From: an uncultured Candidatus Saccharibacteria bacterium | Lineage (GTDB): Bacteria > Patescibacteriota > Minisyncoccia > Phycocordibacterales > UBA918 | Length of the DNA stretch: 31,599 nucleotides | Assembly (NCBI GenBank): GCA_964515625.1 | Contig: CAZEUI010000004.1 | Span: 1 to 31,599 of the forward strand | Reading direction: 5' to 3' | In this document: piece by piece, positions 2,884 to 29,596 of the stretch | How positions within the stretch are numbered: the stretch's first letter is position 1 | Layout: each line of letters begins with the position of its first letter | The notes under the pieces: model-generated | Databases searched by the model: none | Seen by the model: the letters and a program-made list of their open reading frames with translations, nothing else | Told to the model about the DNA's origin: nothing | Translations under genes and position numbers: made by a program

Positions 2884-2947
2884 GTTTATATCTTAACACC
2901 CTTCGCTACAATTTATTTGATTTATGTTAGTTCAGTTCTCGTGTGCT

Positions 2948-4930
2948 TTAAAGCGCTCTTTCTGTTTCGTAAACAGAATTAAATAACATCTGTTCTGACT
3001 CTATGTCTGCTTCTCTTGCAATGTCCTTCTCCTTATCAGTTGTTATTTCTGCGTTCGAAATCTCAATATTATTGATGTTTGAAATCGTCCCTGACCACAC
3101 AGACTTGGACGAATTTATCGATGTTTCGAGATAATAGGTGTTTGAGTTGAAGATTGCTATTCTTCTATCTTTCTCGGCCGCATTTGCGGTTTTGAAAGTT
3201 AAAGATTGCTGTGACCCCAAGTTTGATCCGTCACCATTGATTAATTTAGTTATTGACAGGGTGTCTCTATTGGTTTTATTTATTACCGTAATCATATCAG
3301 CCCTGTCCCCTGTCGTCATTTCTATAAAAGTTTTGTTGATAGAGTTGGTGTCACTAAATGGTGTATAGAGACAGACAGATAGTGAGTTGTTGATTGTGTG
3401 TCCAAATGTGTTTGTTCCATAGTCTGAGCAGGTGTAACTTGGGGTTGCTATAGCAACCTGTTGACTGAGTGTATTGTCTACATCTAAGCAGTGGAAAGAT
3501 TGTGTTCCATCATCAATAAATACTTTGTTGTTGGTGAGGCAGCCAGCTTTAAATATACTAATCTGATTTTCATCAAACAGGTTCTGGGTCAAGTATGGAT
3601 AAAGCATGGTTGTTCCATAAGGTTCATTCATGACAAGACTAGTGTTTATTGATCCTGTGCCTCCAATATGATCCGATGGTATTGAAGTTAGAGAATTGAT
3701 ACCAATAGGTTGTATAGCAAAGGGTGGCTTACTGTAGTAAAAGTTTCCGACAGTATTGTAATTTTTTTGTATAGATAAGGTATTCATCATCTCAACAAGT
3801 TGTGAATCATATAAGATTGAATTTGCCTCCTCTTGCGGTGTTTGAGGTGTTGTTGCAACAGGAGTGTTAATGTTCCCAAAATTATTACTGTTTAAATTAT
3901 TAACAAAATTTGAATAAGATCCTGAAGAGTTACTACTAGAGTCTCCCATGATGACGGAGATGCCATTGTTTACCACATGATTAACAACACTGCTTAATAA
4001 AGATCCAATGATCTCATCAATCTCGTCTGCTTGAACTAAAGACTGACGTCCTGAGTCAAGGTTGAAGCTTAACGCATCTTGAATTATCTTTCCTGGTGTT
4101 GATACAAAACATTCTTGTGTGGCTCCAGATCCGGTACATTTTTTATCTGACATAAATCCTGACCCAAAACTTAAAAATGACATTTCTTCATTTGCTGCTT
4201 TTAAGATCCGGTTATTTAGAGAAATTTCTGCTGAAATACTCGCTCCATATGGTGTGTAGACTTGTGGAGAATTTGTTACATCAAACCAGTCATTCCACCC
4301 GCCTTTAGAAAATGAATCTTTTCCACCGCTTAAGAAATCTTTAAAATTTTCTACATTATCAATAATATCGTCAAGGTTACATCCTCTTGCAGAAGTTGAG
4401 TTTGATTCCATGCTAGCACCAAAATTTAAAGCTAATGAAAGCTTTACATCAAGTCTAAACGGTTCACAGATAAGTGCCTCAAAATCATCACCAATGAAAT
4501 CAAGAAAAGTATTGGTTGCTGTATTTATTAAAAAGTTTTGAATATCCTGTACAAACATAGGTCCCCCATCAGGAAAACCATTTGCTGCCCAGCTGACAAC
4601 ACTCTGCAATAATGTATTGACTACTCCTTTAGCTATAGACCAAGCTAAACCATCTAGTACATACTCTTTATACTTTAGAGCAGTTTCCATTGCTGCACTT
4701 ATATGAGTATTTGCTTGAGTCAAGTAAGTATTTGCTTCAGTCAAAGTTTCTGTAATGTTCATCCAGATGAGTTCAAGTTGTTGTGTTATCTGTAGGGGTA
4801 GTGTAGCAACAACTGCTTCAGCAGGCTTTATGTTGTTTGCTTGATGTGGAACATAAACAGCCATCGTTCCAAAGATTAGAAACACAGTAGCAACGATACT
4901 TTTCTTTAGGATTGTAAAAAATGTATTCAT
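2948..4930 (-). CDS. Exported or membrane-anchored hypothetical protein (660 aa) of the T4SS-like locus
   Basis: N-terminal signal/TM ending AEA. Cys-containing N-half (ICEPFRLDVKLSL, GGWNDW, SDKKC...ECFVSTPG, LVQADEIDEI) and an N/T/S-rich C-half. Confidence 0.8.
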   Translation of the reverse strand: MNTFFTILKKSIVATVFLIFGTMAVYVPHQANNIKPAEAVVATLPLQITQQLELIWMNITETLTEANTYLTQANTHISAAMETALKYKEYVLDGLAWSIAKGVVNTLLQSVVSWAANGFPDGGPMFVQDIQNFLINTATNTFLDFIGDDFEALICEPFRLDVKLSLALNFGASMESNSTSARGCNLDDIIDNVENFKDFLSGGKDSFSKGGWNDWFDVTNSPQVYTPYGASISAEISLNNRILKAANEEMSFLSFGSGFMSDKKCTGSGATQECFVSTPGKIIQDALSFNLDSGRQSLVQADEIDEIIGSLLSSVVNHVVNNGISVIMGDSSSNSSGSYSNFVNNLNSNNFGNINTPVATTPQTPQEEANSILYDSQLVEMMNTLSIQKNYNTVGNFYYSKPPFAIQPIGINSLTSIPSDHIGGTGSINTSLVMNEPYGTTMLYPYLTQNLFDENQISIFKAGCLTNNKVFIDDGTQSFHCLDVDNTLSQQVAIATPSYTCSDYGTNTFGHTINNSLSVCLYTPFSDTNSINKTFIEMTTGDRADMITVINKTNRDTLSITKLINGDGSNLGSQQSLTFKTANAAEKDRRIAIFNSNTYYLETSINSSKSVWSGTISNINNIEISNAEITTDKEKDIAREADIESEQMLFNSVYETERAL

Positions 4931-4940
4931 AAGATAAAAA

Positions 4941-5831
4941 TTAATTCTGTGCTACTGGTCCAAAAATATTGATTGCTAATCCTGGATCATCCATAGAAAA
5001 CCCACTACTAAACGGTGCTACGGCGGTGTAGATGTTTTGTAGTGAATTATGAAGACTGACAGCATCGTTTTGATAATGTTTTAGACGAAGAAGAGTGACA
5101 ACAGGGTCAGAATTAAAGAGTGACATTGCATAGATGTCATAATAGATAGCTTCAAATGTGTTAATGAGGTCTAAATGTTCCTTCGCCATAATTGAAGGGA
5201 CTGGTAAAATGAGTGTGTTGTCTCGGTATTGTTCATAGACGTTAGCTACAGCCTCGAGCTCTTTTATTTCCTTAGGGTTATTATTTCTAACGGCTTCATT
5301 CAAGATATCAAGTTCTCCTCGTAATGTAGGGTCACTGTTCTCAGCAATTATAGTGATTAGGCTGTTTGTGTATCGGATAACATCAGCCTCTTCCCCGCCG
5401 GGAATAATGATAATATCATCGATTGTATATAGTTTTTGTTGTGTTTCATCAAACAGATAGTCAACAGTGTTGTCTATGATCTCTAAATCAGTTTCTCCAA
5501 ATGGTGCATAGATACGAGAACCTAAAATACCCTCCATAAACTGAAGACTCATCTTTCCTGTAAGAGTGTCTGGTGGTGTGTAAGTTGATGTTGCAACATC
5601 AACTATTATGGCATCAGTAGTTATAAACTCGTCTCTCCAGTCTTCTATTCCGTTTAAATCATTATCGGAGACTGTTATAGACATTCTTTCTTGAATCTGT
5701 GGAGTGAGGGAAGCTGCTACAAGTTGGGTTGATTTTGGTTTTTGTAAATTGCTGACTGTGTAAGCTCCTGCAACTAAAGCAAAACCTATGATTGCAGCTC
5801 CAACAATTTTTGAATTAATTTCTGCTTTCAT
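4941..5831 (-). CDS. Membrane-anchored acidic hypothetical protein with a DxDxNG Ca-binding-like motif (about 296 aa)
   Basis: The second ATG (5831, MKAEINSK) is preferred because TATAAT lies 9 nt upstream. N-terminal TM (IVGAAIIGFALVAGAY) and DNDLNGIEDW. Confidence 0.75.
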   Translation of the reverse strand: MKAEINSKIVGAAIIGFALVAGAYTVSNLQKPKSTQLVAASLTPQIQERMSITVSDNDLNGIEDWRDEFITTDAIIVDVATSTYTPPDTLTGKMSLQFMEGILGSRIYAPFGETDLEIIDNTVDYLFDETQQKLYTIDDIIIIPGGEEADVIRYTNSLITIIAENSDPTLRGELDILNEAVRNNNPKEIKELEAVANVYEQYRDNTLILPVPSIMAKEHLDLINTFEAIYYDIYAMSLFNSDPVVTLLRLKHYQNDAVSLHNSLQNIYTAVAPFSSGFSMDDPGLAINIFGPVAQN

Positions 5832-5933
5832 ATGCCTTATATTATATATTAGATTCATCTGAATTTTTTCAATATAGATAGATATGTGTATGAATCTGTG
5901 TATAAGCTGTTGATTAAGGTGTCAGTTGTGTGT

Positions 5934-9869: not shown

Positions 9870-10889
9870 ATTGTTCCTAGCCACATAAAAGTTGTTGGTG
9901 AATTAATTTTCATATTTCTAGTTATTGTTGTACCTGTCTCTGTGCAGGCAGGTTTCTTTAGTAGTTTCTTTAGTAGTGATGAAACCTTATCGGAAACGGT
10001 TGAGCACTCTTTAAATGTGTTGGCTGTTGACATACCATTACTGACTGCTTTGCAGAATCCTAATCCTCTTGGTGCTAGAGGTGGAGCTGAGGTTGTTGTC
10101 GATGAGGATGTTCTTGTTGCGACAGGTCCTGTAGGTGCTGATGTTATTGCTGAGCAAAAAAGTAACGACGGGGAGATTAGGGTCTATACAGTGCGGGATA
10201 ATGATTCTTTGTCAGAAATAGCAGACATGTTTGGGGTGACTACTAATACTATTATGTGGGCAAACGACCTGACTAAAGCAACAGGGATACATCCTGGAGA
10301 CACGCTAGTTATCCTACCTGTTGTTGGTGTAAGGTATTCTGTGAAGAATGGCGACACTATTGGTTCAATTGCTAAAAAATATGAAGGTGATGTTGAAGAA
10401 ATACTTGCCTATAACCAACTTATTTCTGCTAAAGATTTGTCAATTGGTGACATTCTTATTATTCCTGGCGGGGCAATGCATGCTGCTCCGGTAAGAGTTG
10501 CTGCACAAGCTCAGCCTGTGCGTGTGTCAGGAACCTCGATTGCTTCTGTTGGGTTTTCACACCCAGCTCCTGGTTCTGTTAGGACTCAAGGTATTCATGG
10601 TTATAATGCTGTAGATTTAGCTAACAGTATGGGTACTCCTATTAAAGCAGCTGCCTCTGGTGAAGTTATTGTATCTAAAGATTCTGGTTGGAATGGTGGT
10701 TACGGTCAATATATCGTGATAAAACACGCTGACGGTACTCAAACATTGTACTCCCATCTTTCTAGTAATTCAGTTGGGGTTGGTGCTTATGTTTCCCAAG
10801 GTCAGGTTATAGGAGGAATGGGAAGTACTGGCAAATCTACTGGATCACATCTGCACTTTGAAGTGCGTGGTACTAATAATCCGTTTTAA
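9870..10889 (+). CDS. LysM-LysM-M23 metallopeptidase (peptidoglycan hydrolase); start codon uncertain
   Basis: Two LysM repeats (YTVRDNDSLSEIADMFGV; YSVKNGDTIGSIAKKY) and an M23 domain (HGYNAVD, GGYGQYIVIKH, TLYSHL, GSTGKSTGSHLHFEV). The in-frame signal peptide IKVVGELIFIFLVIVVPVSVQA lies upstream of the GTG called at 9942, so the true start is further upstream. Confidence 0.88.
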   Translation: MVPSHIKVVGELIFIFLVIVVPVSVQAGFFSSFFSSDETLSETVEHSLNVLAVDIPLLTALQNPNPLGARGGAEVVVDEDVLVATGPVGADVIAEQKSNDGEIRVYTVRDNDSLSEIADMFGVTTNTIMWANDLTKATGIHPGDTLVILPVVGVRYSVKNGDTIGSIAKKYEGDVEEILAYNQLISAKDLSIGDILIIPGGAMHAAPVRVAAQAQPVRVSGTSIASVGFSHPAPGSVRTQGIHGYNAVDLANSMGTPIKAAASGEVIVSKDSGWNGGYGQYIVIKHADGTQTLYSHLSSNSVGVGAYVSQGQVIGGMGSTGKSTGSHLHFEVRGTNNPF

Positions 10890-12519: not shown

Positions 12520-14265
12520 TTAATTAGATTTCAGCAGGTCTAAAATTTCTTTAAAATCGTTTAAATTATTAGAAATAATAGCTGTATTATCTATGATTCC
12601 ATAAACTAGAACCACCTCGTTATTATTGTTTCTGACTACCCTAGAGTCGATACCTTTAGTGGTTCTGTCTGTGAAAACTGGTATTTTTATATCTAAGTTT
12701 GGATACAAAATACTCAAGTCATTTATCATAGAAGTTTCCCAAATAAAGAAACTACCCTGTATTGACTCAAAGTCTGTGAATTTTAAAAGGATGCTTGGGA
12801 GACCGTCATTAATAGCTATAAATCTGACTGAAGTTAATGACTGCTCTAAGATTGGTGAAGTGCTGAGTCTCAGAAGATTGAATATATAAGCAGGTGAAAT
12901 CTCGGTTTTATCAGGAGAGATTAAAACAATTTCCCTTACCCCGCCCTGACCATTTGTTGACAAATCTTTTATTAGGTCAGGTAATTTATCAATGTTACTC
13001 GTAGTTAGGTTGAGTGGTGATAGTGAGGCTTTTTTTAAGATTAAGTCAATGCTTATTTCATTTACTTGTGTTGTGTTTTCAGATAAATTCTTCATAACAA
13101 TCATTGTAATGAAAATTATCACAATAAGGGCGATAATTATTATTAGAATATTAAGAGTTGTTTGATTAGTTTTTATCTTTCTACTTTCAGTCTTTTTTTC
13201 TACATTAAGAATAATATTCTGCTCTGCTACCGTGCTGTTATCAGGTGTTGCAGGATAGTTTTTAGTATCGGATCTTTCTACTATGTAGTCAGAATTCCAT
13301 CTACTTTCGTCTAGGTCAGAGTATTCTTTTGTGATTTCTTCGCCTCGAATCTCTTGTTCGACTGTAGTTTCAAGCGTTTCCTCTAAAGGGGGTTTAGGAA
13401 TAACCTCCTTTATTTCTTGTGGTGGAAGAACTTCTACTGGTTCAATTTGGGTTTCGATAAGATTCGTTGGTGGTATTTCTTTTTTGACAGGAGCAGACTG
13501 TTTTTTGTATTCAGTCTTTACATCTAGGGTTGAGTCAGAAGTTTCTAATAGTTTGAAGCTTGGCTCAGTATAAGGTGACCATGATATTTCCGGGTCATTA
13601 ATTGTTATTTCAGCTTCGTCTCCTTTTCTATTTTTGATTCTGTCCTTCAAAGTCTTGCTTGAAGTTGTGAACATTACTCCGCTTTGTGAAGTGGCTTTTT
13701 GGATGACACCCTTTCTTCGTTTCGTTTCAGGGATTTCGAATTTTGGAACACTCTTTCTCTTCCTGTCGCGTTTAAGTTTATTGAACCACTCCTTAATAGA
13801 TTTAATAATAGAAGGGACTACTTCAAAGCTGTCACTTTTAGTGTCAGTAATAATGGTGGCATCATAACCGATATTTAGTTTTTTCTGTTTCGGTAAGATT
13901 GTAATCTTATTCGTATTATCGTCTTTTGTTGCCAGTTTGTCTTTATGACTAGCCTCTACTTTTTTTTGAAGTTCATGAAAAGAAGGGGTGTTTTGAGAGC
14001 CTGACTCCTTCTTTGTGGGTTTAATTATGACTGGTTTAGGTATTTCTGGCCGGTCGGATTTTTTAGGAGCTGTAATATGAGATACTTTTATAACTTTTTC
14101 TTTTCTCTCTTTTTTTACCTTAGTAGCGGTGTGTTTTTTTACAGGTTCAGAAACAGCGCTTTTAAGGTCTTCATGTTTACCTTGCTTACGCCTCTTTCGT
14201 TCAGTTAATAGGTCACGAGCATAGGTGTGAATTGCTGTTGGCTGTTGTCTAGTCTGTCTGCTCAT
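12520..14265 (-). CDS. Single-pass membrane hypothetical protein (581 aa)
   Basis: K/R-rich N-terminus, E/P/T-rich linker, one TM (ILIIIIALIVIIFITMIVM) and a folded-looking C-terminal domain of about 185 aa. Confidence 0.8.
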   Translation of the reverse strand: MSRQTRQQPTAIHTYARDLLTERKRRKQGKHEDLKSAVSEPVKKHTATKVKKERKEKVIKVSHITAPKKSDRPEIPKPVIIKPTKKESGSQNTPSFHELQKKVEASHKDKLATKDDNTNKITILPKQKKLNIGYDATIITDTKSDSFEVVPSIIKSIKEWFNKLKRDRKRKSVPKFEIPETKRRKGVIQKATSQSGVMFTTSSKTLKDRIKNRKGDEAEITINDPEISWSPYTEPSFKLLETSDSTLDVKTEYKKQSAPVKKEIPPTNLIETQIEPVEVLPPQEIKEVIPKPPLEETLETTVEQEIRGEEITKEYSDLDESRWNSDYIVERSDTKNYPATPDNSTVAEQNIILNVEKKTESRKIKTNQTTLNILIIIIALIVIIFITMIVMKNLSENTTQVNEISIDLILKKASLSPLNLTTSNIDKLPDLIKDLSTNGQGGVREIVLISPDKTEISPAYIFNLLRLSTSPILEQSLTSVRFIAINDGLPSILLKFTDFESIQGSFFIWETSMINDLSILYPNLDIKIPVFTDRTTKGIDSRVVRNNNNEVVLVYGIIDNTAIISNNLNDFKEILDLLKSN

Positions 14266-19094: not shown

Positions 19095-19137
19095 AAATTT
19101 TAATTAGATGATTAATGTTGTTTATATTTTAACATTA

Positions 19138-19166
19138 AAAATACGCTACTTTAAGTAACGTATTTT
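19138..19166. terminator. Hairpin downstream of the M14 pair
   Basis: AAAATACG...CGTATTTT with an inner TACT/AGTA stem. Confidence 0.45.
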
Positions 19167-19187
19167 CTCTTAACTTAATCTGAATTT

Positions 19188-20087
19188 CTACTCTTTATAT
19201 AACTCAAGCACTGCATTCATCCCTGCTAAATTTTGTGTCCATTCAATACTGGTACGACTACCAAGCTCAACTGTGACAGCAGGAATCCCGATGGAAGCCA
19301 ACCATCCTTCAGCGTCTCCAGTAATTGGATAAGCATCAAATACGGGAATGGCTCCGTAATTAGTAGCGTTTGAATACGCTCGCATGAGGGTAAGTGTTTG
19401 TGGTAAAACTCCGTTCTCACATTCTGAGGCATAAACATTGTTTGCCTTACTATGCCAAAAGATAGTTGCTTCTGGAGTGGTAGTTGAAACATAGTTCTGT
19501 AAAGCTTTTGCTTCTGGTTCTGAAAAAGCTTGAGTCCCAGCGCTCACTGTCTGCCCTCTCCAACTACTCGTTGGTGCCCACTTACAAGCAAAGTTACGGT
19601 TTAAGTCAACATTGTTTTTGTTGAAACGACCGAGTCCTGAGTTATGCATATCGTTGTTGGTAATGTCTGTAGCAACAAATTTTCCTTCCAGTCCAGTAGC
19701 AATAAATAAACCATCTGGATTCATGTTGGGGATGATGTGGGCAGTGATATTTTTTGGTATCGACAGATTGTCTTCACTAATATAATCAATCATCTCGTAA
19801 GCAAGTAAAATACTATTCCATTCATAACCACCATGAATACCTCCGACAAACAGAATATCCTGCTCACCAGTGCCAAATGTATAAACCTCAATGCTTCGTC
19901 CATCGACAGAATATCCGATGATGCTATGTGTCGAGGTAGGTACAGTTGCTTCGACTACTTGAACTACAGTATCTTCTGATATATGAATGTCTTTTCCAGT
20001 TTTGTTTCCAAAAATCATAAACAGCAATCCTACTGCAAGGAGTAGGATTGCTGTACCAATGAAAAGACTGGTTTTTTTATTGGTCAT
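19188..20087 (-). CDS. M14 zinc carboxypeptidase (MpaA-like), catalytically intact
   Basis: GGIHGGYEW (His and Glu ligands), NPDG, RFNKNNVDLNRNF, IFWHS (third ligand), GIPAVTVEL (catalytic Glu); N-terminal TM. Confidence 0.88.
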   Translation of the reverse strand: MTNKKTSLFIGTAILLLAVGLLFMIFGNKTGKDIHISEDTVVQVVEATVPTSTHSIIGYSVDGRSIEVYTFGTGEQDILFVGGIHGGYEWNSILLAYEMIDYISEDNLSIPKNITAHIIPNMNPDGLFIATGLEGKFVATDITNNDMHNSGLGRFNKNNVDLNRNFACKWAPTSSWRGQTVSAGTQAFSEPEAKALQNYVSTTTPEATIFWHSKANNVYASECENGVLPQTLTLMRAYSNATNYGAIPVFDAYPITGDAEGWLASIGIPAVTVELGSRTSIEWTQNLAGMNAVLELYKE

Positions 20088-21031
20088 TAGTTAGCGTAAG
20101 ATTTAAGTACTGCTTCTATACCCGCTTTGTTTTTATTCCACTCAGTGCTCCTGTGGTCAGTTAAAAGTACACTGATTGCAGGAATACCTTTTCCTGCCAT
20201 CCAGTTAACCATGTCTCCAGTTATTGCATAAGCATTAAATTCTGCCGCTGCATCGTATCCTGCCGCTGATGCAAAAGTTGCTGCAAGTCTAATAGAGTCT
20301 TTACTTTGGGCTCCTTCACACGATGAGGGGTAAACTTTTCCTTCAGCACTGAACCAGACAATCGCAGCTTCTGGTTTGTAAAAGTTCACGTAGTCACGTA
20401 AAGCAGCTGCCTCAGGTTCTGAAAAAGGTGCATCCCCACCACTTACTTGTTGATTTTTCCAGGTTGCTGTTTCGCTCCAGTCACAATCAAAGTTTCTGTT
20501 AAGATCTACTTTATTAGAGTTAAATCTCCCGGTAATCCTCGTCGCTTCACTTACAGCTAGTGCTTCGTTTGTGTCAAATCTACCAGATGTTCCGACTGTC
20601 GCCTTTAATCCGTCAGGGTTCAGAACAGGTATTACTGTAACTGTTACGTTACTAGGGATGATTTCAAGGTCTTCTTTCAAGTAGTCTACTAATTCATATC
20701 CCACTAAGGCTGTGTTCCATGAGTATCCCCCATGTACTCCACCAACAAAGAGTAACTCTGTTTCTCCTGTTCCAAAATGATAAGCTTTTATCTCAGATCC
20801 CTCAATTGATGTTCCGATAACAGTAACGTCTCCTCTTTTTTCGATAGTTACTTCCTCAACATAATCTGAAGAGGGTTCTTCAATGTATTCTAAGGGAGTA
20901 TCCTTTTCAATTTCTGTCGCTGTATCCTTAACGGGTACAGAACTTTCATCTCCAGAGTTTAATAATAAATAACCGACTGCTCCAACTAATACTAATAATA
21001 AGACCGCAATTACAATGTTTTTTGAATTCAT
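20087..21031 (-). CDS. M14 carboxypeptidase paralogue, predicted inactive
   Basis: Same fold motifs (NPDG, RFNSNKVDLNRNF, FSEPE) but GGVHGGYSW, IVWFS and GIPAISVLL. Its TAA overlaps the next ATG (TAATG). Confidence 0.85.
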   Translation of the reverse strand: MNSKNIVIAVLLLVLVGAVGYLLLNSGDESSVPVKDTATEIEKDTPLEYIEEPSSDYVEEVTIEKRGDVTVIGTSIEGSEIKAYHFGTGETELLFVGGVHGGYSWNTALVGYELVDYLKEDLEIIPSNVTVTVIPVLNPDGLKATVGTSGRFDTNEALAVSEATRITGRFNSNKVDLNRNFDCDWSETATWKNQQVSGGDAPFSEPEAAALRDYVNFYKPEAAIVWFSAEGKVYPSSCEGAQSKDSIRLAATFASAAGYDAAAEFNAYAITGDMVNWMAGKGIPAISVLLTDHRSTEWNKNKAGIEAVLKSYAN

Positions 21032-21223
21032 ATACTACTATTATATGCTAGACTAATTGTCTTGACCAGTATGACTTAAATAAAGGTTGGGAGAGTGTGT
21101 ATAACTATATTTAAATAATCCTATTCAGGTGTATACTCATGAGTAAGGAAGTAGTTCTTTTGTTCTTTATCACCCACCCACCCACCAAAAAAAAGCAGAA
21201 TAATTCTGCAGTAATACCCCCCT

Positions 21224-21269: not shown

Positions 21270-21359
21270 CTGCCTTTTTATACCGGTAAATATAATTGGT
21301 ATGTAAAAAGGTAGGTGTTACACTATATAAAGTTGCACATGTGCAGAAACCTATTTTAA

Positions 21360-21737
21360 ATAACAGAAGAATATGAATACGAAACTACTGATTTAGAAGA
21401 AGTATGTGACCTTCTTGCTATAGGTCTGGATATTCCGGTTTCTGAGGTAGAAGAGGCTATTAATGATGTTGATGAGTACGTTGACTCAGACGAAAAAATA
21501 GATGCTACCGAGGACTATCTAGACAATGAAGATTATGCTGTTGCATAAGACTTAGTAAAAGAAGCTAAGGGTCTTGCAGAAGAAATCCTTAAGTATTTAG
21601 ACAAGGCTGACGACGACGATGATAAATGTGATGAAGAAAGCTCAGGTAAAAGTAGGTGGTGTAGAGATGATAATGGTGAAGAAGTTCACCCCAGTCAAAA
21701 TAAAGATAAATCTCAAGACAGGTTTAAAGATTATTGA
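21360..21737 (+). pseudogene. Remnant of a very acidic protein; no start codon, one internal stop
   Basis: ITEEYEYETTDLEEVCDLL...EDYAVA*(TAA 21546-21548)DLVKEAKGLAEEILKYLDKADDDDDK...FKDY*. The frame stays protein-like across the stop. Confidence 0.55.
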
Positions 21738-24169
21738 ACTACAGCTAGTTCTTCTTCACTAAAGTCTGATTTTGAAAGTGGAATAATATCTCCTCTTTTA
21801 ACTGCTCCAGAAATTATCTTTTGTGCTATTTTTTCTTCAACAGTATTTTGAAGCATTCTTTGCATTGGTCTGGCTCCAAATTCTGGGCTGTACCCCCTCT
21901 CTACTAGTGTGTCCAGTAAGTCTTTTGAGATGTTGATTTCATAACCTCTCTTCATAACACGATCTCTCAGTTGACCAAACATCAGACTGGCAATTTCTGT
22001 CTGATGTTCGATGTTTAAAGGTTCAAAGATGATAGTGTTGTCGAAACGGTTGATTAGTTCTGGTCGATATATTCCCTCTTTGACTATGCTGTCAATTATT
22101 TCTTGGGCTAGGTGTGATAGCTCCTTTCTTTGTTGAACCGTTTTCATGATTAGCTTACTGCCGGCATTTGAAGTGGCGATAATGATGACATTGCGAGCAT
22201 TTACTTTCGCTCCTCGAGCATCAGTAAAAAATCCCTCGTCTAATATCTGTAGGAATAAATCATGAACTTGTTGCGTAGACTTTTCGAACTCATCTAAAAG
22301 CAATACACAGTATGGGTGTTCTCGTAGAAGTGTTGGTAATACTCCAGGCTGTTCCCCCTCACCGATCATCTTTCTTAAAGCATTCACTCCGCTATATTCA
22401 GACATGTCTATTCTTTGTAATTTATCCTCACCACCGAAGAAAACATTAGCTAACGCTTTAGCTGTCTCCGTTTTACCAACACCTGTAGGTCCAAGAAAAA
22501 GGAAAGATCCTATAGGTTTCTCTGAAGACTGAATGCCTGCCCGAGCCCTGCGCATAGTTCTAGCGATGGCGTTCAATGCAACTTGTTGTCCGATTACCTG
22601 CTGATGAAGTCTGTCTTCTAGGTGGAGAAGAAGCTCACGTTCGGAGTCTTTGATCGGTCCAACCGGCACTCCGGTTGTGTCACTTACTACAGAGTAAACA
22701 AAATCTTCAGTAATCATTACGTCACCGGACTGACTTGCTTTGGTAGCTACGTTGATGAGTAATAATATTGCCTTGTCTGGCATAACACCTTCCACGATGT
22801 AACGTTCTGCTGATGTTGTTATTGCATGAAGTCCTGCATAGGTAAAAAGAATTTTGAATTTATATTCTTGCTGAAGAGCAATATTTTGTAAAACACGTGT
22901 AGTAGCATAAAGGTCGGGTGTATCGAGCAATACTTCGGAAAAACGCCTAACAAAAGCTCCTAAAGTTTCGATGTGAGTATGGTATTCACTAGGGGTGTCA
23001 GTGGCGATTATCTGCAATTGAGGTAAAGAGAGATATTCATCAATAAGTTCAGGGATGAAAACTCCCATAGCTTCTGCTTCCCGAATAAAGGTGCTTAAAT
23101 GTTCGATAACAATGATAATATTTCCCGCTTCTACCGCTTCGTCAAACATGTTGATAATGGTCTGCTCTAATTCAAATTTATCTTTATGGGTCGCAAACAG
23201 TCTATTTGTGTCCAATACAATTATCTGCTTCCCTACAATAGCATCTAAAGACTTTCCTATTCGTATACGTCTCTTCATCTCCATCACTAAATCTATTTTA
23301 CCAACACCTGCTTCACCAATAATGAGAACATTAGATGCTTTTGACCGAATTAAAGCAGTTTCAATCTCCTCAACTTTCTCTGTAGAAAAATCTGTATTAT
23401 TACCAAGTGTGGAAAAAATGGCACTAGTATTAATATTTCGTGAAAATTTGTTCAAAAGATAAGCTGTTCCGTACGCCCATTCTCGCCCGATACCTGTAGT
23501 TTTTGACAGATTGTCTTTCCCCCACCACCTAAGTTGTTTCTTTTCTTGATGATAAGTTCCGATTGTCCAACGTAAAGCCCCGATAAAAGTATCTTCAGAG
23601 ATTCCATTATTTTTCATTAAGGATTTAAACTCTAAGTCGTGAGTTAGAAGGTGTTTTCCTAATCCTATCAAACTAAAGATTTCATCCTCGGGCATCATTA
23701 CTGAAGATGCTGTTATTAGTTGTCGAGGAGATTTTAAGAATTCATCAATTTGATCCTGTGTTAGCCCTGTGCGGGATAATATCTGAGATCCAAATACTGA
23801 AGTGCAGAAAGAGCGAGTAACATCGTCTTTGTTTTTTAATACAGCTTCGGCAACATCGTAAGTAGCACCCGATACATTTTCATCATCAAGTCCGATGATA
23901 GAATTTAGACCCCGAAAATAGTAGCTATTATGGTAAGAAAAGGTAACTATTTGCTTGAGCCATAGAGAGCCGAATATTAATGATCCGCCTATGAGCTCTT
24001 GGAGGTATTGAGCATCAAAAAAATAGTAGCTTGTTGCAACTCCAAAGCTACATAAAGTAATACCTACAAAACTGCTGGTTCTGAGTGTGGAAAGTGTTTT
24101 CCTACTTAGAATGGAAGTAAGTTTGATAGGAGACTGGAACTTTTTAATGCTGTCTTCAAGATTGTTCAT
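21731..24169 (-). CDS. Membrane-anchored Clp/Hsp100-like double AAA+ ATPase (812 aa)
   Basis: Two N-terminal hydrophobic segments; degenerate NBD1 (GEAGVGKID, IIVIEHL); canonical NBD2 (GSFLFLGPTGVGKT, LLLDEFEK, IATSNAG, RPELINRFD, FGARPMQR). Confidence 0.9.
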   Translation of the reverse strand: MNNLEDSIKKFQSPIKLTSILSRKTLSTLRTSSFVGITLCSFGVATSYYFFDAQYLQELIGGSLIFGSLWLKQIVTFSYHNSYYFRGLNSIIGLDDENVSGATYDVAEAVLKNKDDVTRSFCTSVFGSQILSRTGLTQDQIDEFLKSPRQLITASSVMMPEDEIFSLIGLGKHLLTHDLEFKSLMKNNGISEDTFIGALRWTIGTYHQEKKQLRWWGKDNLSKTTGIGREWAYGTAYLLNKFSRNINTSAIFSTLGNNTDFSTEKVEEIETALIRSKASNVLIIGEAGVGKIDLVMEMKRRIRIGKSLDAIVGKQIIVLDTNRLFATHKDKFELEQTIINMFDEAVEAGNIIIVIEHLSTFIREAEAMGVFIPELIDEYLSLPQLQIIATDTPSEYHTHIETLGAFVRRFSEVLLDTPDLYATTRVLQNIALQQEYKFKILFTYAGLHAITTSAERYIVEGVMPDKAILLLINVATKASQSGDVMITEDFVYSVVSDTTGVPVGPIKDSERELLLHLEDRLHQQVIGQQVALNAIARTMRRARAGIQSSEKPIGSFLFLGPTGVGKTETAKALANVFFGGEDKLQRIDMSEYSGVNALRKMIGEGEQPGVLPTLLREHPYCVLLLDEFEKSTQQVHDLFLQILDEGFFTDARGAKVNARNVIIIATSNAGSKLIMKTVQQRKELSHLAQEIIDSIVKEGIYRPELINRFDNTIIFEPLNIEHQTEIASLMFGQLRDRVMKRGYEINISKDLLDTLVERGYSPEFGARPMQRMLQNTVEEKIAQKIISGAVKRGDIIPLSKSDFSEEELAVVQ

Positions 24170-25682: not shown

Positions 25683-26843
25683 TTATATTCTTATCTTAGG
25701 ATAAGCTCCGTATACTCCACTTTGATACTTGGCGAAATAGTTATCCTCACTGCGAAACTTCATTTCGTCTAATCGAAACACCTCGCTAACATTATTTTCT
25801 TTCTCGACCAAGAATATCTGCTGAGCATCAAATTTCTTCATGAATTCTAAGGAGTGAGATGAGAAAATAAACTGTTTCTTACTTTCAGCTAGTTCGTCAA
25901 CAATAAACTGAATCAGTTTATTGACTGCTTCTGGATGTAGTCCAGTTTCTATTTCGTCAGATACCATTACAGTACCTTCACTAATAAAAAATATTATGCG
26001 ACCTAGTTCATAAAATAGTGCTCGTGTACCCCGAGATTCATAATCGATAGGTAATAAATATTTCTCCGTGCCTATTATATGGTTAGCTTTGATGTCATAT
26101 TTACCGTCAGAGTTTTTTGTGATTAAAAAGTCTTCAATACCAATATTAAAATCACGTATTATTTGCTCCATCCTCGTTTTTACTTCTGGAGATTTAAGGT
26201 AAGTTTCGGCAGCTAACTCAAGTCCGGTTATGTTGTGTATAGTTTCCCCACATTCAGAAAAATTTATTTGAAATAAACTAAAATACTCACCAATTTCACT
26301 CAGTATTGGTATGTCATAACTAGTATTAATAAATGCTACAGCAGATACACCGTTTTGTATGGACGACATCTTCTTTTTTGTGACACCAGTAAAATATTTA
26401 GGATTCAGATTAAATTCTCTCTCATTTCTGTCTATTAGAGTAGTAAACCGAGATCTTTTTTTAAGAGACTTAAAAGATACAAACTCCTTAATAACTAAGT
26501 AGTTTCTAATCTCAAGATAAATTTTAAATAGATGAGTATCATTTTCAAATTCAATCTCCACCAAACTAGTGTTATTTTTTATGAAAGAATAATTTTTAAA
26601 TGGCGTAAAAGTAATACCTTTAGCTTTATTGGAGACTGTTAATATATAGCTAATGAAGCCGAAAATCCTCATAGCATTTGTTTTACCAGAGGCATTTGAA
26701 CCGGCAAAACCAGCTACTTTTGAGATTAAAGTACCGTCATAGGCTTCGTAGTAATCACTACTTTTCTTTTTAGTGGTTGTAAAATCTATTTCCTGCCTAT
26801 CTTTAAAAGAATAAAAGTTCTCAAATGAAATTTTTCTTATCAT
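25683..26843 (-). CDS. RloA-like (AAA_21 / ABC-type) ATPase of a defence pair
   Basis: ISFENFYSFK, GSNASGKTN, ESRGT signature, VSDEIETGLHP, FIFSSHS, C-terminal YQSGVYGAYP. Confidence 0.85.
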   Translation of the reverse strand: MIRKISFENFYSFKDRQEIDFTTTKKKSSDYYEAYDGTLISKVAGFAGSNASGKTNAMRIFGFISYILTVSNKAKGITFTPFKNYSFIKNNTSLVEIEFENDTHLFKIYLEIRNYLVIKEFVSFKSLKKRSRFTTLIDRNEREFNLNPKYFTGVTKKKMSSIQNGVSAVAFINTSYDIPILSEIGEYFSLFQINFSECGETIHNITGLELAAETYLKSPEVKTRMEQIIRDFNIGIEDFLITKNSDGKYDIKANHIIGTEKYLLPIDYESRGTRALFYELGRIIFFISEGTVMVSDEIETGLHPEAVNKLIQFIVDELAESKKQFIFSSHSLEFMKKFDAQQIFLVEKENNVSEVFRLDEMKFRSEDNYFAKYQSGVYGAYPKIRI

Positions 26844-26929: not shown

Positions 26930-29596
26930 TTATAACTTCCCAACCATTCCTTCCATGTCCTTATGTGGTGCTACATACACCACCTCGCCTACCGCTTCAA
27001 AATGTTTCCTGCCAGACTTAATTTTTAGTTGTTCCATTAGCGATAAGTCTTCCAGTCTGTCTGTCCCTTTTGTTTCAGTTACCAAATATAACTTCTTGTC
27101 CCCCATAAACACAATTGCCCAGTCGGGGTTGTAGCTTCCTAGTGGAGTCTTGATTTTGAATTTTGGTGGTAACTTCATGTAAAACTCAATCTCGTCTCTG
27201 TCCTCTAGTTCAGCCGCAAAGTCGTTTTCTATCTGCGAATCAAAAGCTACGTGGTCATAAAGAGTTTTGTCTTTATTTTGTACTACTCGAACGTTATCTA
27301 TATACGATTCAATTTCTGCATCCTTAAATATTTGCATATCGTACACCTCTTCACCAATCTTCTCGTATTTGATTCCATCAATAATCATCTCTTGTTTAGT
27401 TCGACGGATTTCCTGCACCATATTATCCATAAAGTGTTGTGGGTTGGTGCGTAGTCTAGTCAACGCTTCCTTGCCGGCTAAGTTCAGAATAGTTGCGATA
27501 GTGTCAGGGCGGAGTTGGGTATGATAAGAAATATACTTCATTATATTCGGTATTGGTAGAGACTGTTTAAACTGCTTGCCTTTACCAACTTTCCGCACAG
27601 TAGTTAAAATTCCTTTTCTAGCATCAAATTGTAGTGATGCCACATCGGTTCTAATCCTTGGTGCTACCGAACTAATTTCCCCCACTGCTTCAGCCGCCTT
27701 TTTAACAAAAGTCTTATCACTAAAACTAACGGAATAATTAGTCTTGTATTTTATTCGTTGCCAGAGTTCCAGGAATTTTTCATCAAGTTCCCATTTTTTC
27801 TTCAGCTTCACCTGCTGTCGCTTGTATTTATTCTTTATTCTACCGCCATCAAACTTAACCCCAGTTTCTTCCTCAATCTCACCTTGCAGTCCTTTGGCAA
27901 AAGTATCATAACTTTCATTTGCAATCACCGTTAGGACATTGATTGAAGTATCGAAAATACGCACTCCTTCGTGGTTCACCGGCAGTCTTAATCCCCGTCC
28001 AATCTCCTGTCGCTTTTTAACGTAAGCCCCTGTTTCATTTAGAGTACAAATCTGAAAAACATTTGGATTATCCCAACCTTCTTTTAGAGTAGAGTGAGAA
28101 AAGATAAATTGTAAGGGCTCATCTGCTGAAAGTAGCTTCTCCTTGTCTTTCATTATTAGGGCGTAAGTATCGCGGTCGGCTTCAGTAGTGCCTCTAGTGT
28201 CCTTGTAGCCACCCGTTTTGTCTTTAGAAAAATAGCCGTCATGCACTAGTTCCACCTTTGGTAGTTTTATTTTTTTGTATTTAGGTAGAGCTGACAATTC
28301 ATTATAGATATCCTTAAACCACTGCGCATAAATACCACCTTCCCCCGCTTCATGGTTGCGGTACTTAACAACTGAATCAATAAAAAACAACGACAAAACC
28401 TTAATCTTTTCCCCTCGCTCCTGAAACTTCCGCATTTTTTCTAAATGCTCACTGACAGTGTCGTATATCTGCTGTTTCCGTATTTCATCATCAAGTTCAC
28501 CAATTCCTTTGCGGGTAGATACTATTTCACCATTTTGAAACTCCACTTCTTCACTACCAGCATCAATACTACTCACAATAAACCCGTCGTATGCCGGCAA
28601 GAATCCAGACTCTTCATACAAATTACATTCCTTAGTGGCTCGTGTTTTGTGTACTTGGGTTTTGATAGACTTCTTCTTAATAACACCCTTATTAACCACT
28701 TCAATTTCCAGAGTAGCGACAATGGCAGTTTTGCTCGCTTTAATACTTTTTACTTTCACATAAGCATCATTCTGCGCTCCTTCCTCTCGGACTGAAGCTA
28801 CTTCAATCCGTTTAACTAGCCCTTGGTCATAGGCATCGACAGGTGTTAAACGGTGGATTTGATTATATAAATTTCGGTGGGTGGCAGAATAACGTAGAGT
28901 ACAAAGTGGATTGAGTGATTCTATAGCGTTGCGTCGAATGTCCGTCTCCATATTTTGCGGTTCGTCAATAATCACTATCGGGTTGGTTTTTTGAATTAGT
29001 TCCATCGGTACGCCGATGATAGTGTCACTAGCTTTATTCATGACTCGATTTACCGTGTCAAAAGCTTCGATGTTTATTAGCATGACGCTCAAGTTGTTGC
29101 TGGTAGCAAAAGCACTCAGATCACTCGGACGTTTACTATTGTAGGCGAAGAAGCTGTAGTTTGGGTTGCCGTAAAGTGTCCGCAGGTGGTCACGAGTAAT
29201 TTCTAGTGACTTCAACACCCCTTCACGAATAGCCTTACCCGGTACTACAATAATAAACTTACCAAAGCCGTATCGCTTATGGAGTTCAAAAATGGTTCGT
29301 AAATAAACATAAGTCTTGCCGGTACCAGTCTCCATTTCGATGGTGAAATTTCGTCCTTGGTAATCCTCTTGTTTTGTAAGCTTGTTTCGCTCTTGAACAG
29401 CGTGCAGGTTTTTGATTATGGCGTCTTCTTCTATCTGTAGTAAATTACCCACGCCCATTCCGTTTTGAAATAAACCCAGACCGTTAGAGCTGAAAACATC
29501 GTTTCCACCGGTAGTTTGTTGTCCGTCAAATAAGTCTGTCACGCTTTTAATAGCGTCTAACTGATATTCTTGATGGGGATCAAATTGCAGTTTCAT
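26930..29596 (-). CDS. res: Type III restriction endonuclease subunit Res
   Basis: EMETGTGKT, IIDEPQN, LRYSATH, FIFSHSTLKEGWDNPNVFQICTL, QEIGRGLRL, C-terminal YNPDW...ETKG (PD-(D/E)xK); uninterrupted 888 aa. Confidence 0.95.
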   Translation of the reverse strand: MKLQFDPHQEYQLDAIKSVTDLFDGQQTTGGNDVFSSNGLGLFQNGMGVGNLLQIEEDAIIKNLHAVQERNKLTKQEDYQGRNFTIEMETGTGKTYVYLRTIFELHKRYGFGKFIIVVPGKAIREGVLKSLEITRDHLRTLYGNPNYSFFAYNSKRPSDLSAFATSNNLSVMLINIEAFDTVNRVMNKASDTIIGVPMELIQKTNPIVIIDEPQNMETDIRRNAIESLNPLCTLRYSATHRNLYNQIHRLTPVDAYDQGLVKRIEVASVREEGAQNDAYVKVKSIKASKTAIVATLEIEVVNKGVIKKKSIKTQVHKTRATKECNLYEESGFLPAYDGFIVSSIDAGSEEVEFQNGEIVSTRKGIGELDDEIRKQQIYDTVSEHLEKMRKFQERGEKIKVLSLFFIDSVVKYRNHEAGEGGIYAQWFKDIYNELSALPKYKKIKLPKVELVHDGYFSKDKTGGYKDTRGTTEADRDTYALIMKDKEKLLSADEPLQFIFSHSTLKEGWDNPNVFQICTLNETGAYVKKRQEIGRGLRLPVNHEGVRIFDTSINVLTVIANESYDTFAKGLQGEIEEETGVKFDGGRIKNKYKRQQVKLKKKWELDEKFLELWQRIKYKTNYSVSFSDKTFVKKAAEAVGEISSVAPRIRTDVASLQFDARKGILTTVRKVGKGKQFKQSLPIPNIMKYISYHTQLRPDTIATILNLAGKEALTRLRTNPQHFMDNMVQEIRRTKQEMIIDGIKYEKIGEEVYDMQIFKDAEIESYIDNVRVVQNKDKTLYDHVAFDSQIENDFAAELEDRDEIEFYMKLPPKFKIKTPLGSYNPDWAIVFMGDKKLYLVTETKGTDRLEDLSLMEQLKIKSGRKHFEAVGEVVYVAPHKDMEGMVGKL

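Follow-up and report, generated by a model that had tools for sequence, protein, structure and literature searches.

We analysed a stretch of 31,599 nucleotides from an uncultured Candidatus Saccharibacteria bacterium (GTDB lineage Patescibacteriota; Minisyncoccia; Phycocordibacterales; UBA918; contig CAZEUI010000004.1, positions 1 to 31,599 of the forward strand), hereafter the window, in which two consecutive genes on the minus strand encode paralogous proteins of the M14 peptidase fold. The upstream gene (A) encodes a non-catalytic copy and the downstream gene (B) a predicted active zinc carboxypeptidase; their features are collected in Table 1. The two proteins share 45% identity across 264 aa (E = 6e-79), and both belong to Pfam family PF00246 (Peptidase_M14), with scores of 76.7 bits for B and 62.6 bits for A against a gathering cut-off of 21.6 bits. 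In both proteins an ectodomain, M14-fold in A and catalytic in B, is tethered by an N-terminal membrane anchor; in A a disordered acidic linker lies between the two. The AlphaFold2 (AF2) models had a mean pLDDT of 90.1 for B and 86.5 for A, with a low-confidence linker after the hydrophobic helix in both; residues 27-54 of A were below 50. Searched against the PDB with Foldseek, both models returned M14 carboxypeptidases only (CPA, CPB, CPT and MpaA, at 17-24% identity), with E ~1e-15 for B and ~1e-14 for A; the best matches were CPA, CPT and MpaA for A, and CPB, CPA, CPT and MpaA for B.

The catalytic motifs read HGGYE (residues 85-89), FWH (210-212) and VEL (273-275) in B, and HGGYS (100-104), VWF (225-227) and VLL (288-290) in A. 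These reading frames and motifs are exactly those listed in a first-pass annotation made from the DNA letters, and its further statement that the two copies share the RFN..VDLNRNF motif, both Cys, an anchor and an intact frame also held: A and B alike have an uninterrupted frame, GRFN...VDLNRNF, a hydrophobic anchor at the N-terminus and two Cys.

Table 1. Features of the A/B gene pair and its immediate flanks (positions in the window)
Feature	Position	Strand	Basis or remark
Gene A, non-catalytic M14 paralogue	20087..21031	-	314 aa; open reading frame (ORF), Pfam PF00246, AF2, Foldseek
Gene B, predicted active M14 zinc carboxypeptidase	19188..20087	-	299 aa; ORF, Pfam PF00246, AF2, Foldseek
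A N-terminal hydrophobic helix (aa 3-24), signal anchor	20960..21025	-	DSSP on AF2 model, hydropathy; 80/80 orthologues
B N-terminal hydrophobic helix (aa 4-26), signal anchor	20010..20078	-	AF2 model, hydropathy; 79/80 orthologues
TAATG junction: A stop TAA (20089-20087) and B start ATG (20087-20085), one shared base	20085..20089	-	Sequence
B codons H85-G-G-Y-E89, predicted Zn ligands with HxxxE spacing	19821..19835	-	One-residue insertion relative to HxxE of CPB/CPT/MpaA
B codon H212, predicted third Zn ligand (His196-equivalent)	19452..19454	-	CPB and MpaA alignments; invariant
B codon E274, predicted general base (Glu270-equivalent)	19266..19268	-	CPT and MpaA alignments; invariant
B Y253-W262 (YPITGDAEGW), Tyr248-equivalent and S1' pocket segment	19299..19328	-	Aligned to CPT 'YITDGDMSDW'
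A codons H100-G-G-Y-S104, first Zn ligand kept, Glu72-equivalent = Ser	20720..20734	-	His invariant
A codon F227, Phe in place of His196-equivalent	20351..20353	-	Y 60, F 20 of 80 species
A codon L289, Leu in place of Glu270-equivalent	20165..20167	-	L in 80/80 species, 120/120 homologues
Promoter-like TGGTCA-17-TATAAT	21040..21068	-	Consensus scan, 10/12 matches; weak
Terminator-like hairpin, 14-bp stem, 3-nt loop, U-run	19137..19167	-	20 nt past B stop

Catalysis by M14 peptidases needs His69, Glu72 and His196 together with Glu270, and the roles of Arg127 and Arg145 have been tabulated (PMC11266112). We located these positions by aligning B and the profile of the B family to solved structures (CPB, CPT and MpaA) with HMMER. 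B H85 fell on His69 and E89 on Glu72, with a gap opened in the target ('GIHA-REW' against 'GIHGGYEW'; 'HGDEN-S' in MpaA). H212 fell on His196 ('MHS' in CPB, 'FHD' in MpaA), and E274 on the general base Glu270 ('FTFE' in CPT, 'ITAEF' in MpaA). B has the full ligand set and the general base (H85, E89, H212, E274), and we predict that it is a zinc carboxypeptidase, although with HxxxE rather than HxxE spacing; the H-G-G-Y-E/S segment is one residue longer than HxxE in both copies. In A, H100 is kept, S104 and F227 replace the other two ligands, and L289 stands at the position of the base. Because the His196 position is Tyr or Phe and the Glu270 position Leu, A cannot hold a catalytic zinc or activate water. 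The alignment therefore bears out the earlier claim that the upstream copy had lost two of its three zinc ligands and the catalytic Glu.

A scan of one genome per species then yielded 574 relatives; the species counts given here use the best 80 loci of the 574, which carry Patescibacteria-type names, mostly of the Paceibacteria/Parcubacteria group, and are not a sample of the whole candidate phyla radiation (CPR). Each of the 80 loci contained exactly two M14 paralogues on one strand, the dead copy first and the active copy second. At the four catalytic positions the dead copies read HSYL (28 species), HEYL (25), HSFL (18), HAYL (3), HGYL (3), HEFL (2) and HTYL (1). Tyr or Phe at the His196 position and Leu at the Glu270 position were universal among them (80/80), and the Glu72 position held S, A, G or T in 53 species and Glu in 27. 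The B orthologues had His at the His196 position without exception (79/79). The 120 best database homologues of A (52-69% identical; metagenome-assembled genomes of Kaiser-, Nomura-, Pacei- and Parcubacteria) had Ser at the Glu72 position in 118 cases, with one Ala and one Glu, Phe (103) or Tyr (17) at His196, and Leu at Glu270 in all 120. The 120 best homologues of B read H/E/H/E at the four catalytic positions, with no exception. The patterns separate so cleanly across the 120 + 120 homologues that the dead/active split is not a matter of chance.

The A orthologues were intact in all 80 species, at 292-342 aa with an N-terminal anchor and exactly two ectodomain Cys. Over the same species, mean pairwise identity of the ectodomain was 0.618 for A and 0.616 for B, which indicates that purifying selection on A is as strong as on the enzyme. 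(Pairwise identities of A and B were correlated, r = 0.56, but shared phylogeny confounds this value and we do not count it as evidence.) Adjacent, co-oriented active and inactive paralogues kept across species, and purifying selection on the inactive member, are both features of enzyme/pseudoenzyme complexes. Since the dead copy is kept just upstream of the live one in all 80 species, it is not a decaying duplicate, and these data support the view that A is a long-conserved pseudoenzyme, probably a working non-enzyme partner of B. The first-pass annotation had taken A for a pseudoenzyme unless its orthologues should prove to keep the catalytic residues; His196 and Glu270 are replaced in every one of the 80 dead copies, and that reading survives. 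Its expectation that the S/F/L substitutions would recur was borne out for the second (as Tyr or Phe) and third positions and not for the first, where Glu72 to Ser is not universal. The gene order recurred as expected in all 80 loci and the tight junction in most of them, in a set that is narrower than the CPR it had in mind. Two homologues outside the window have intermediate states: P0095 keeps HGGYE and has Tyr196 and Leu270, and P0264 reads H-A-D-E and falls inside the active sister group in the tree described below. The states of inactivation across the clade are not all-or-none.

An exhaustive HMMER search with B against 1.84 billion cluster representatives gave 3198 matches at E <= 1e-3 and 262 at E <= 1e-30. 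Among the best 150 there were 148 new representatives, 110 of which read H/E/H/E, almost all with HGG[YWF]E. As most representatives carry HGG[YWF]E, HxxxE is the signature of a large clade and not a peculiarity of this pair; the spacing that had been called atypical is indeed one residue longer than HxxE in both copies, but it is a trait of the whole clade, to which several thousand proteins belong. B is accordingly best described as a predicted M14 peptidase of an uncharacterised HxxxE clade. In the open-access text we found nothing relevant on HGGYE or HxxxE in M14 or on M14 or MpaA in CPR/Parcubacteria, and no publication on this A/B pair. We also computed a neighbour-joining tree of the M14 domain with the four catalytic columns masked. 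The A-like dead representatives were monophyletic (15/15), and their sister group contained B and four other active representatives. This topology fits a history in which one duplication was followed by one inactivation and later by repeated loss of a Glu72 that had become useless.

The substrate site of A is not simply that of B without its chemistry. Alignment of the two families gave 52 columns at least 95% identical in both, including the equivalents of Arg127, Asn144-Arg145 and Tyr248 and both Cys. The carboxylate clamp is present in each family as the Arg of GRFN, the Asn-Arg of DLNRNF and the Tyr of (D/N)xY. After Tyr248, however, the B segment reads D-A-E-G-W and the A segment D-M-V-N-W. 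B E260 lies at the position of CPA Ile255 and CPB Asp255 and is Glu in 74/78 B orthologues, whereas the same column of A is Val in 75 of 80 orthologues, flanked by Met (76/80) and Asn (79/80). With Leu270 and Tyr/Phe196, the pocket of A thus appears to have turned hydrophobic while the clamp stayed. The suggestion that A keeps the substrate-binding site is right for the clamp motif and needs amending for the S1' residues, which differ systematically from those of B and have been remodelled. We believe that the site of A is probably binding-competent and non-hydrolytic, with a preference unlike that of B; an alternative reading is a plugged pocket. In B, the acidic S1' residue leads us to predict a C-terminal basic or diamino acid in the substrate.

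The overlap of the two genes at TAATG, already remarked on in the annotation, was confirmed, and a 1-nt stop/start overlap (mostly TAATG) was found in 46 of the 80 species. In the others the genes overlapped by 4 nt (2 species) or were separated by a gap of 0-28 nt (29) or more (3). Shine-Dalgarno (SD)-like motifs (GGAG/GAGG/AGGA) were nearly absent, occurring before A in 4/79 and before B in 0/77 of loci L001-L080. Since the motif is almost absent before A too, its lack before B does not independently prove translational coupling; its rarity suggests leaderless or SD-independent initiation in this lineage. The -10 box of the promoter-like sequence upstream of A ends 8 nt before the ATG of A, and the mRNA of A is possibly leaderless. 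Past the stop codon of B, the terminator-like hairpin folds as RNA with -17.1 kcal/mol (z = -4.4), and none of 200 shuffles was as stable. The promoter-like site and this hairpin together fit a self-contained bicistronic unit.

A second structure was observed within the coding sequence of B. Codons 12-22, in the 5' end that encodes the transmembrane segment, contain a perfect 14-bp hairpin (20021-20054, minus strand; -28 kcal/mol for the 91-nt context, z = -6.1). Over the first 80 nt in 77 species, the mean z was -1.05 for B and 0.03 for A, with z < -3 in 10 B genes and 1 A gene, on z scores that rest on crude mononucleotide shuffles. The hairpin might tie initiation of B to ribosomes that are finishing A.

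Our best explanation for these observations, which we hold to be probable by a modest measure, is that A and B form a co-translated, membrane-anchored enzyme/pseudoenzyme module acting on peptidoglycan stem peptides. One tandem duplication in the ancestor of these Patescibacteria would have produced the two-gene module, and its products would be membrane-anchored, extracytoplasmic M14-fold proteins translated together from one message. B would sit on the outside of the membrane as the catalytic subunit, using its H-x3-E...H ligands and the Glu general base. It would most likely remove, or cleave at, the C-terminal basic or diamino acid of stem peptides, and would thus be a gamma-D-Glu-diamino-acid (DL) carboxypeptidase or amidase. 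A, the non-catalytic twin, would be produced in step with B through the stop/start overlap, and would either bind a peptide C-terminus without cleaving it or dock on B to position or regulate it, as in the heterodimer suggested in the annotation. The explanation builds on the split into dead and active copies and its age, the purifying selection that acts on A, the strict order of the genes and their junction, the M14 fold, the N-terminal anchors and the domain fusions of active relatives; the substrate, the physical contact between A and B and ligand binding by A we infer from these.

The assignment of the substrate draws mainly on relatives of B. Active members of the HxxxE clade are often fused to LysM, M23 or SLT domains: LysM was found in 22/105 clade representatives scanned together and in 6 more scanned singly (28 in total), M23 in 2, an SLT lytic transglycosylase domain in 2 and NAGPA in 1. 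A review of M14 wall hydrolases names LysM among their partner domains (PMC6403190). The fusions support, without proving, that peptidoglycan stem peptides are the substrate of B. MpaA (NF007897) was the only curated M14-type NCBIfam model matched by A, B and the clade, and the matches were below cut-off. Outside the window, the 636-aa protein P0332 has two M14 domains, one of the HGGYE type and one MpaA-like (118.9 bits, NF007897), together with a C-terminal LysM; as far as its predicted domains go, this tandem shows that two M14 domains can act side by side on wall peptides. The window itself contains a gene for a LysM-LysM-M23 peptidase (9942-10889, plus strand), a typical peptidoglycan endopeptidase architecture, and the organism therefore encodes other surface wall hydrolases.

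Several observations weigh against this explanation. In the Pfam scan, neither A nor B themselves had a LysM or any other wall-binding domain. MpaA was ranked no higher than the digestive-type CPA, CPB and CPT by Foldseek and HMMER, and the acidic S1' residue would be just as fitting in a general peptidase of the CPB type. That the unusual HxxxE spacing binds zinc is a prediction, and contact between A and B is inferred. The scarcity of SD motifs before both genes means that the SD test does not discriminate coupling; the promoter is a weak consensus match, the promoter-like sites of the region being in total no more numerous than in shuffles. Finally, the sequence was matched only in DNA runs, from hydrothermal vent metagenomes. 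The peptidoglycan link proposed in the annotation thus finds indirect backing in the LysM, M23 and SLT fusions of active clade members and none in the domains of A and B. The label 'MpaA-type' fared worse. B scored 30.2 bits and A 24.4 bits with NF007897, the MpaA equivalog model, and as these scores are far below its cut-off of 157 they are not MpaA equivalogs; with CPA, CPB and CPT ranked at least as high, the label is weak. Nor do A and B have the short, anchorless MpaA-like form (~240 aa), since each has a hydrophobic helix and a linker. We ruled out orthology with MpaA on score, HxxxE spacing and topology.

A serious rival is a nutritional module, in which B would be a CPB-like surface carboxypeptidase that frees basic amino acids from peptides of the environment or of a host to feed an auxotrophic cell, and A its non-catalytic partner or peptide-capturing subunit, with no involvement of peptidoglycan. 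The digestive-type enzymes are the closest structural and sequence matches, Glu in B occupies the position of CPB Asp255, wall-binding domains are missing from the pair, and both proteins are predicted to be anchored and outward-facing. Patescibacteria are, moreover, widely inferred to depend on imported amino acids (PMC7304191). We nevertheless consider a nutritional module unlikely. About one-fifth of the representative active clade members carry LysM and others M23 or SLT, MpaA was the only curated M14 model matched, and a stem tripeptide with C-terminal Lys or diaminopimelic acid (DAP) would also suit an acidic S1' pocket.

A further possibility, the second that the annotation offered, is that A is a free-standing receptor for wall fragments, which would bind muropeptide C-termini at the cell surface for sensing or uptake independently of B and be linked to it only through a shared pathway. 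The invariant clamp and the abolished chemistry of A speak for such a receptor, and so does a second, independent clade of dead M14 domains. In the tree, seven representatives formed a separate monophyletic dead clade reading H-A-E-L, H-V-E-L or H-A-G-L. A search with one ectodomain of this clade found 869 proteins at E <= 1e-10, and the named matches were all from Chloroflexi (Anaerolineae, Promineifilaceae, Ardenticatenaceae). In 119 aligned Chloroflexi sequences the Glu270 position was Leu in 105 and the Glu72 position Ala in 94, with Arg127, Asn144 and Arg145 kept in all 119. These proteins lie outside the window (P0382, P0378, P0369, P0363, P0371, P0375, P0388 and P0396-P0514), and in ~20 of the 120 listed a cytoplasmic zinc ribbon and a transmembrane segment precede the dead M14 domain, which lies outside the membrane. 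P0382 joins a PknB-like Ser/Thr kinase (302 bits with a PASTA-kinase model) through a transmembrane segment to a dead M14 domain, P0378 does the same with an nSTAND1 NTPase, and P0369 pairs the dead M14 with a Trypsin_2 domain; each is a single protein. The kinase and STAND fusions, as single sequences, are candidate architectures.

Because the same Glu-to-Leu change and the kept clamp occur where sensor domains sit, ligand binding by dead M14 domains is plausible, and the dead M14 ectodomain is possibly a new extracytoplasmic sensor domain. We would extend this only as speculation, unlikely but worth stating, to the idea that dead M14 ectodomains of two independent lineages are an unrecognised class of bacterial surface receptors for the C-termini of peptides or muropeptides. 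If true, A of Patescibacteria would capture the cell's own or a host's wall peptides and hand them to B or gate it, and in Chloroflexi the dead M14 domain would take the place of PASTA domains in a kinase and sense wall fragments for it. As an account of A itself, a receptor independent of B seems to us quite improbable. With 2-4 cytoplasmic residues and no output domain A cannot signal alone, its strict order before B in 80/80 loci and the stop/start overlap argue for stoichiometric co-function, and the kinase and STAND fusions belong to another lineage.

We regard it as very unlikely that A is an enzyme of different chemistry using His100, the Tyr at position 196 and other residues. The equivalent of His69 is indeed invariant, that of Glu72 is kept in 27/80 species, and Tyr is able to ligate metals in some metalloproteases. 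Yet the 80-species alignment revealed no acidic or His residue near the site that is conserved in A alone, the base is an invariant Leu, and a quarter of the orthologues have Phe, not Tyr, at position 196. Known M14 proteins substituted at position 270, among them Ecm14 and AEBP1, are inactive (PMC11266112). That A is a decaying or recently inactivated, functionless duplicate is hardly credible, and we reject it: the loss of two zinc ligands and the base in this genome and the variable Glu72 position (S, E, A, G, T) are what it has in its favour, against substitutions fixed in 80/80 species (invariant Leu270, universal Tyr/Phe196), intact orthologues with anchor and both Cys, identity equal to that of B, a dead clade that is monophyletic and old, and a family-specific M-V-N fixed in the pocket.

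The genomic surroundings gave no further functional clue. The flanking genes (ClpB-like AAA+, CspA, S15, a XerC/D-type recombinase, NYN and a 356-aa membrane protein) are housekeeping or unannotated and recur in at most 24 of the 80 loci, and we dropped the neighbourhood as a source of function; as the flanking genes are not conserved, the A/B pair itself is the unit. The gene for the ClpB/ClpC-like AAA+ protein (812 aa, 21731-24169, minus strand) accompanies the M14 pair in 24/80 loci. Only its second ATPase module is strong (AAA_2, ClpB_D2-small); the first half gave a weak P-loop match, and no Clp_N match was listed for it. The 700-nt gap between this gene and A contains a terminator-like hairpin (21195-21209, minus strand) and a very acidic frame (21300-21700, plus strand; …EEYEYETTDLEEV…DKADDDDDKCDEES…). 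This frame has no ATG/GTG/TTG start, one in-frame TAA and no Rfam match; it may be what is left of a gene, or else a small gene of an unconventional kind. Neither Rfam nor tRNA scans found anything in the window or in the gap upstream of A. Farther away, a gene for an AAA_21/AbiEii-like ATPase (25683-26843, minus strand) adjoins one for a ResIII helicase with a RE_endonuc domain (26930-29596, minus strand). The two look like a defence or restriction island and are absent from related loci. Four large ORFs (764, 660, 305 and 581 aa; 589-5858 and 12520-14265, minus strand) had no Pfam match at E <= 1e-4.

The lineage is large, has tiny genomes and is almost uncultured, and the pair is fixed in all 80 of its species that were sampled; the retention of a 314-aa 'useless' protein in such genomes implies an important job at the cell surface. 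As a defined two-protein system the pair may reveal how wall peptides are processed or recycled, or amino acids acquired, in ultra-small bacteria. A itself has the design of a natural 'substrate trap': the clamp is retained, Leu stands in place of the base and the pocket is hydrophobic. The Chloroflexi fusions are a lead to a possible new sensor domain.

Among known M14 proteins, MpaA, the murein tripeptide amidase of E. coli (M14C; PDB 5hxd, 4axv; NF007897), shares its fold with A and B and resembles B in the His/Glu/His ligands, the Glu general base and the NRN motif, with a Foldseek TM-score of 0.70-0.72, normalised to the target. MpaA cleaves the gamma-D-Glu-DAP bond of substrates with a C-terminal diamino acid (PMC6403190), which would suit the predicted acidic S1' pocket of B. 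It differs in having HGDE (HxxE) instead of HxxxE, and its chains of 237-243 aa aligned to the catalytic domain only and not to the N-terminal hydrophobic segment of A or B, which are anchored ectoproteins with two conserved Cys; MpaA has no described dead partner. Csd4 and Pgp1 are extracytoplasmic M14 DL-carboxypeptidases that trim the muramyl tripeptide (PMC4220969, PMC3310789). These and the LysM-bearing M14 wall peptidases resemble the pair in being extracytoplasmic M14 proteins, and they act on stem peptides, as is proposed for B; LysM occurs in many active clade members too. Csd4 has extra C-terminal domains, however, and none of them is known to have a dead paralogue as an obligate neighbour; Csd4 and Pgp1 were not among the HMMER matches of B to solved structures. 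The eukaryotic M14 pseudopeptidases (AEBP1/ACLP, CPXM1, CPXM2, CPD domain III and yeast Ecm14) have substitutions at positions 72, 196 and/or 270; they are conserved and serve binding, not catalysis (PMC11266112, Table 2). Unlike A, they have Tyr or Lys rather than Leu at position 270 and are not paired in an operon with an active twin, and in most of them Arg127 or Arg145 is gone, while the clamp of A is complete. The same review lists eukaryotic cases only and no bacterial M14 pseudopeptidase.

Active and inactive metallopeptidase paralogues are found together in other families. Csd1-Csd2 of Helicobacter pylori is an M23B LytM pair, crystallised as a heterodimer, in which one protein has a full and the other a degenerate zinc site (PMC5053510). 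It likewise consists of two paralogous proteins of one metallopeptidase fold, one with a full zinc site, but the fold is M23, its helical dimerisation domain is missing from A and B, and the heterodimer demonstrated there is for A and B a supposition. In the prokaryotic M16B alpha/beta peptidases (MPP-like), active and inactive paralogues come from adjacent genes and function as a single enzyme, and the dead subunit aids substrate binding (PMC11266112); these belong to another clan and fold and are soluble clam-shell dimers without membrane anchors. The inactive LytM factors EnvC, NlpD, ActS and DipM are degenerate metallopeptidase domains that regulate active wall hydrolases (10.1101/2022.09.10.507391, PMC8416486). 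They have the M23 fold, and what they activate is an unrelated amidase and not a paralogue of their own. Pseudoenzyme partners, as in Csd1-Csd2 and the LytM factors, recur as a control of cell-wall hydrolases. An enzyme and its dead paralogue in one operon is thus a known kind of arrangement, and what is new in the A/B pair is the family, the lineage and the design of the site.

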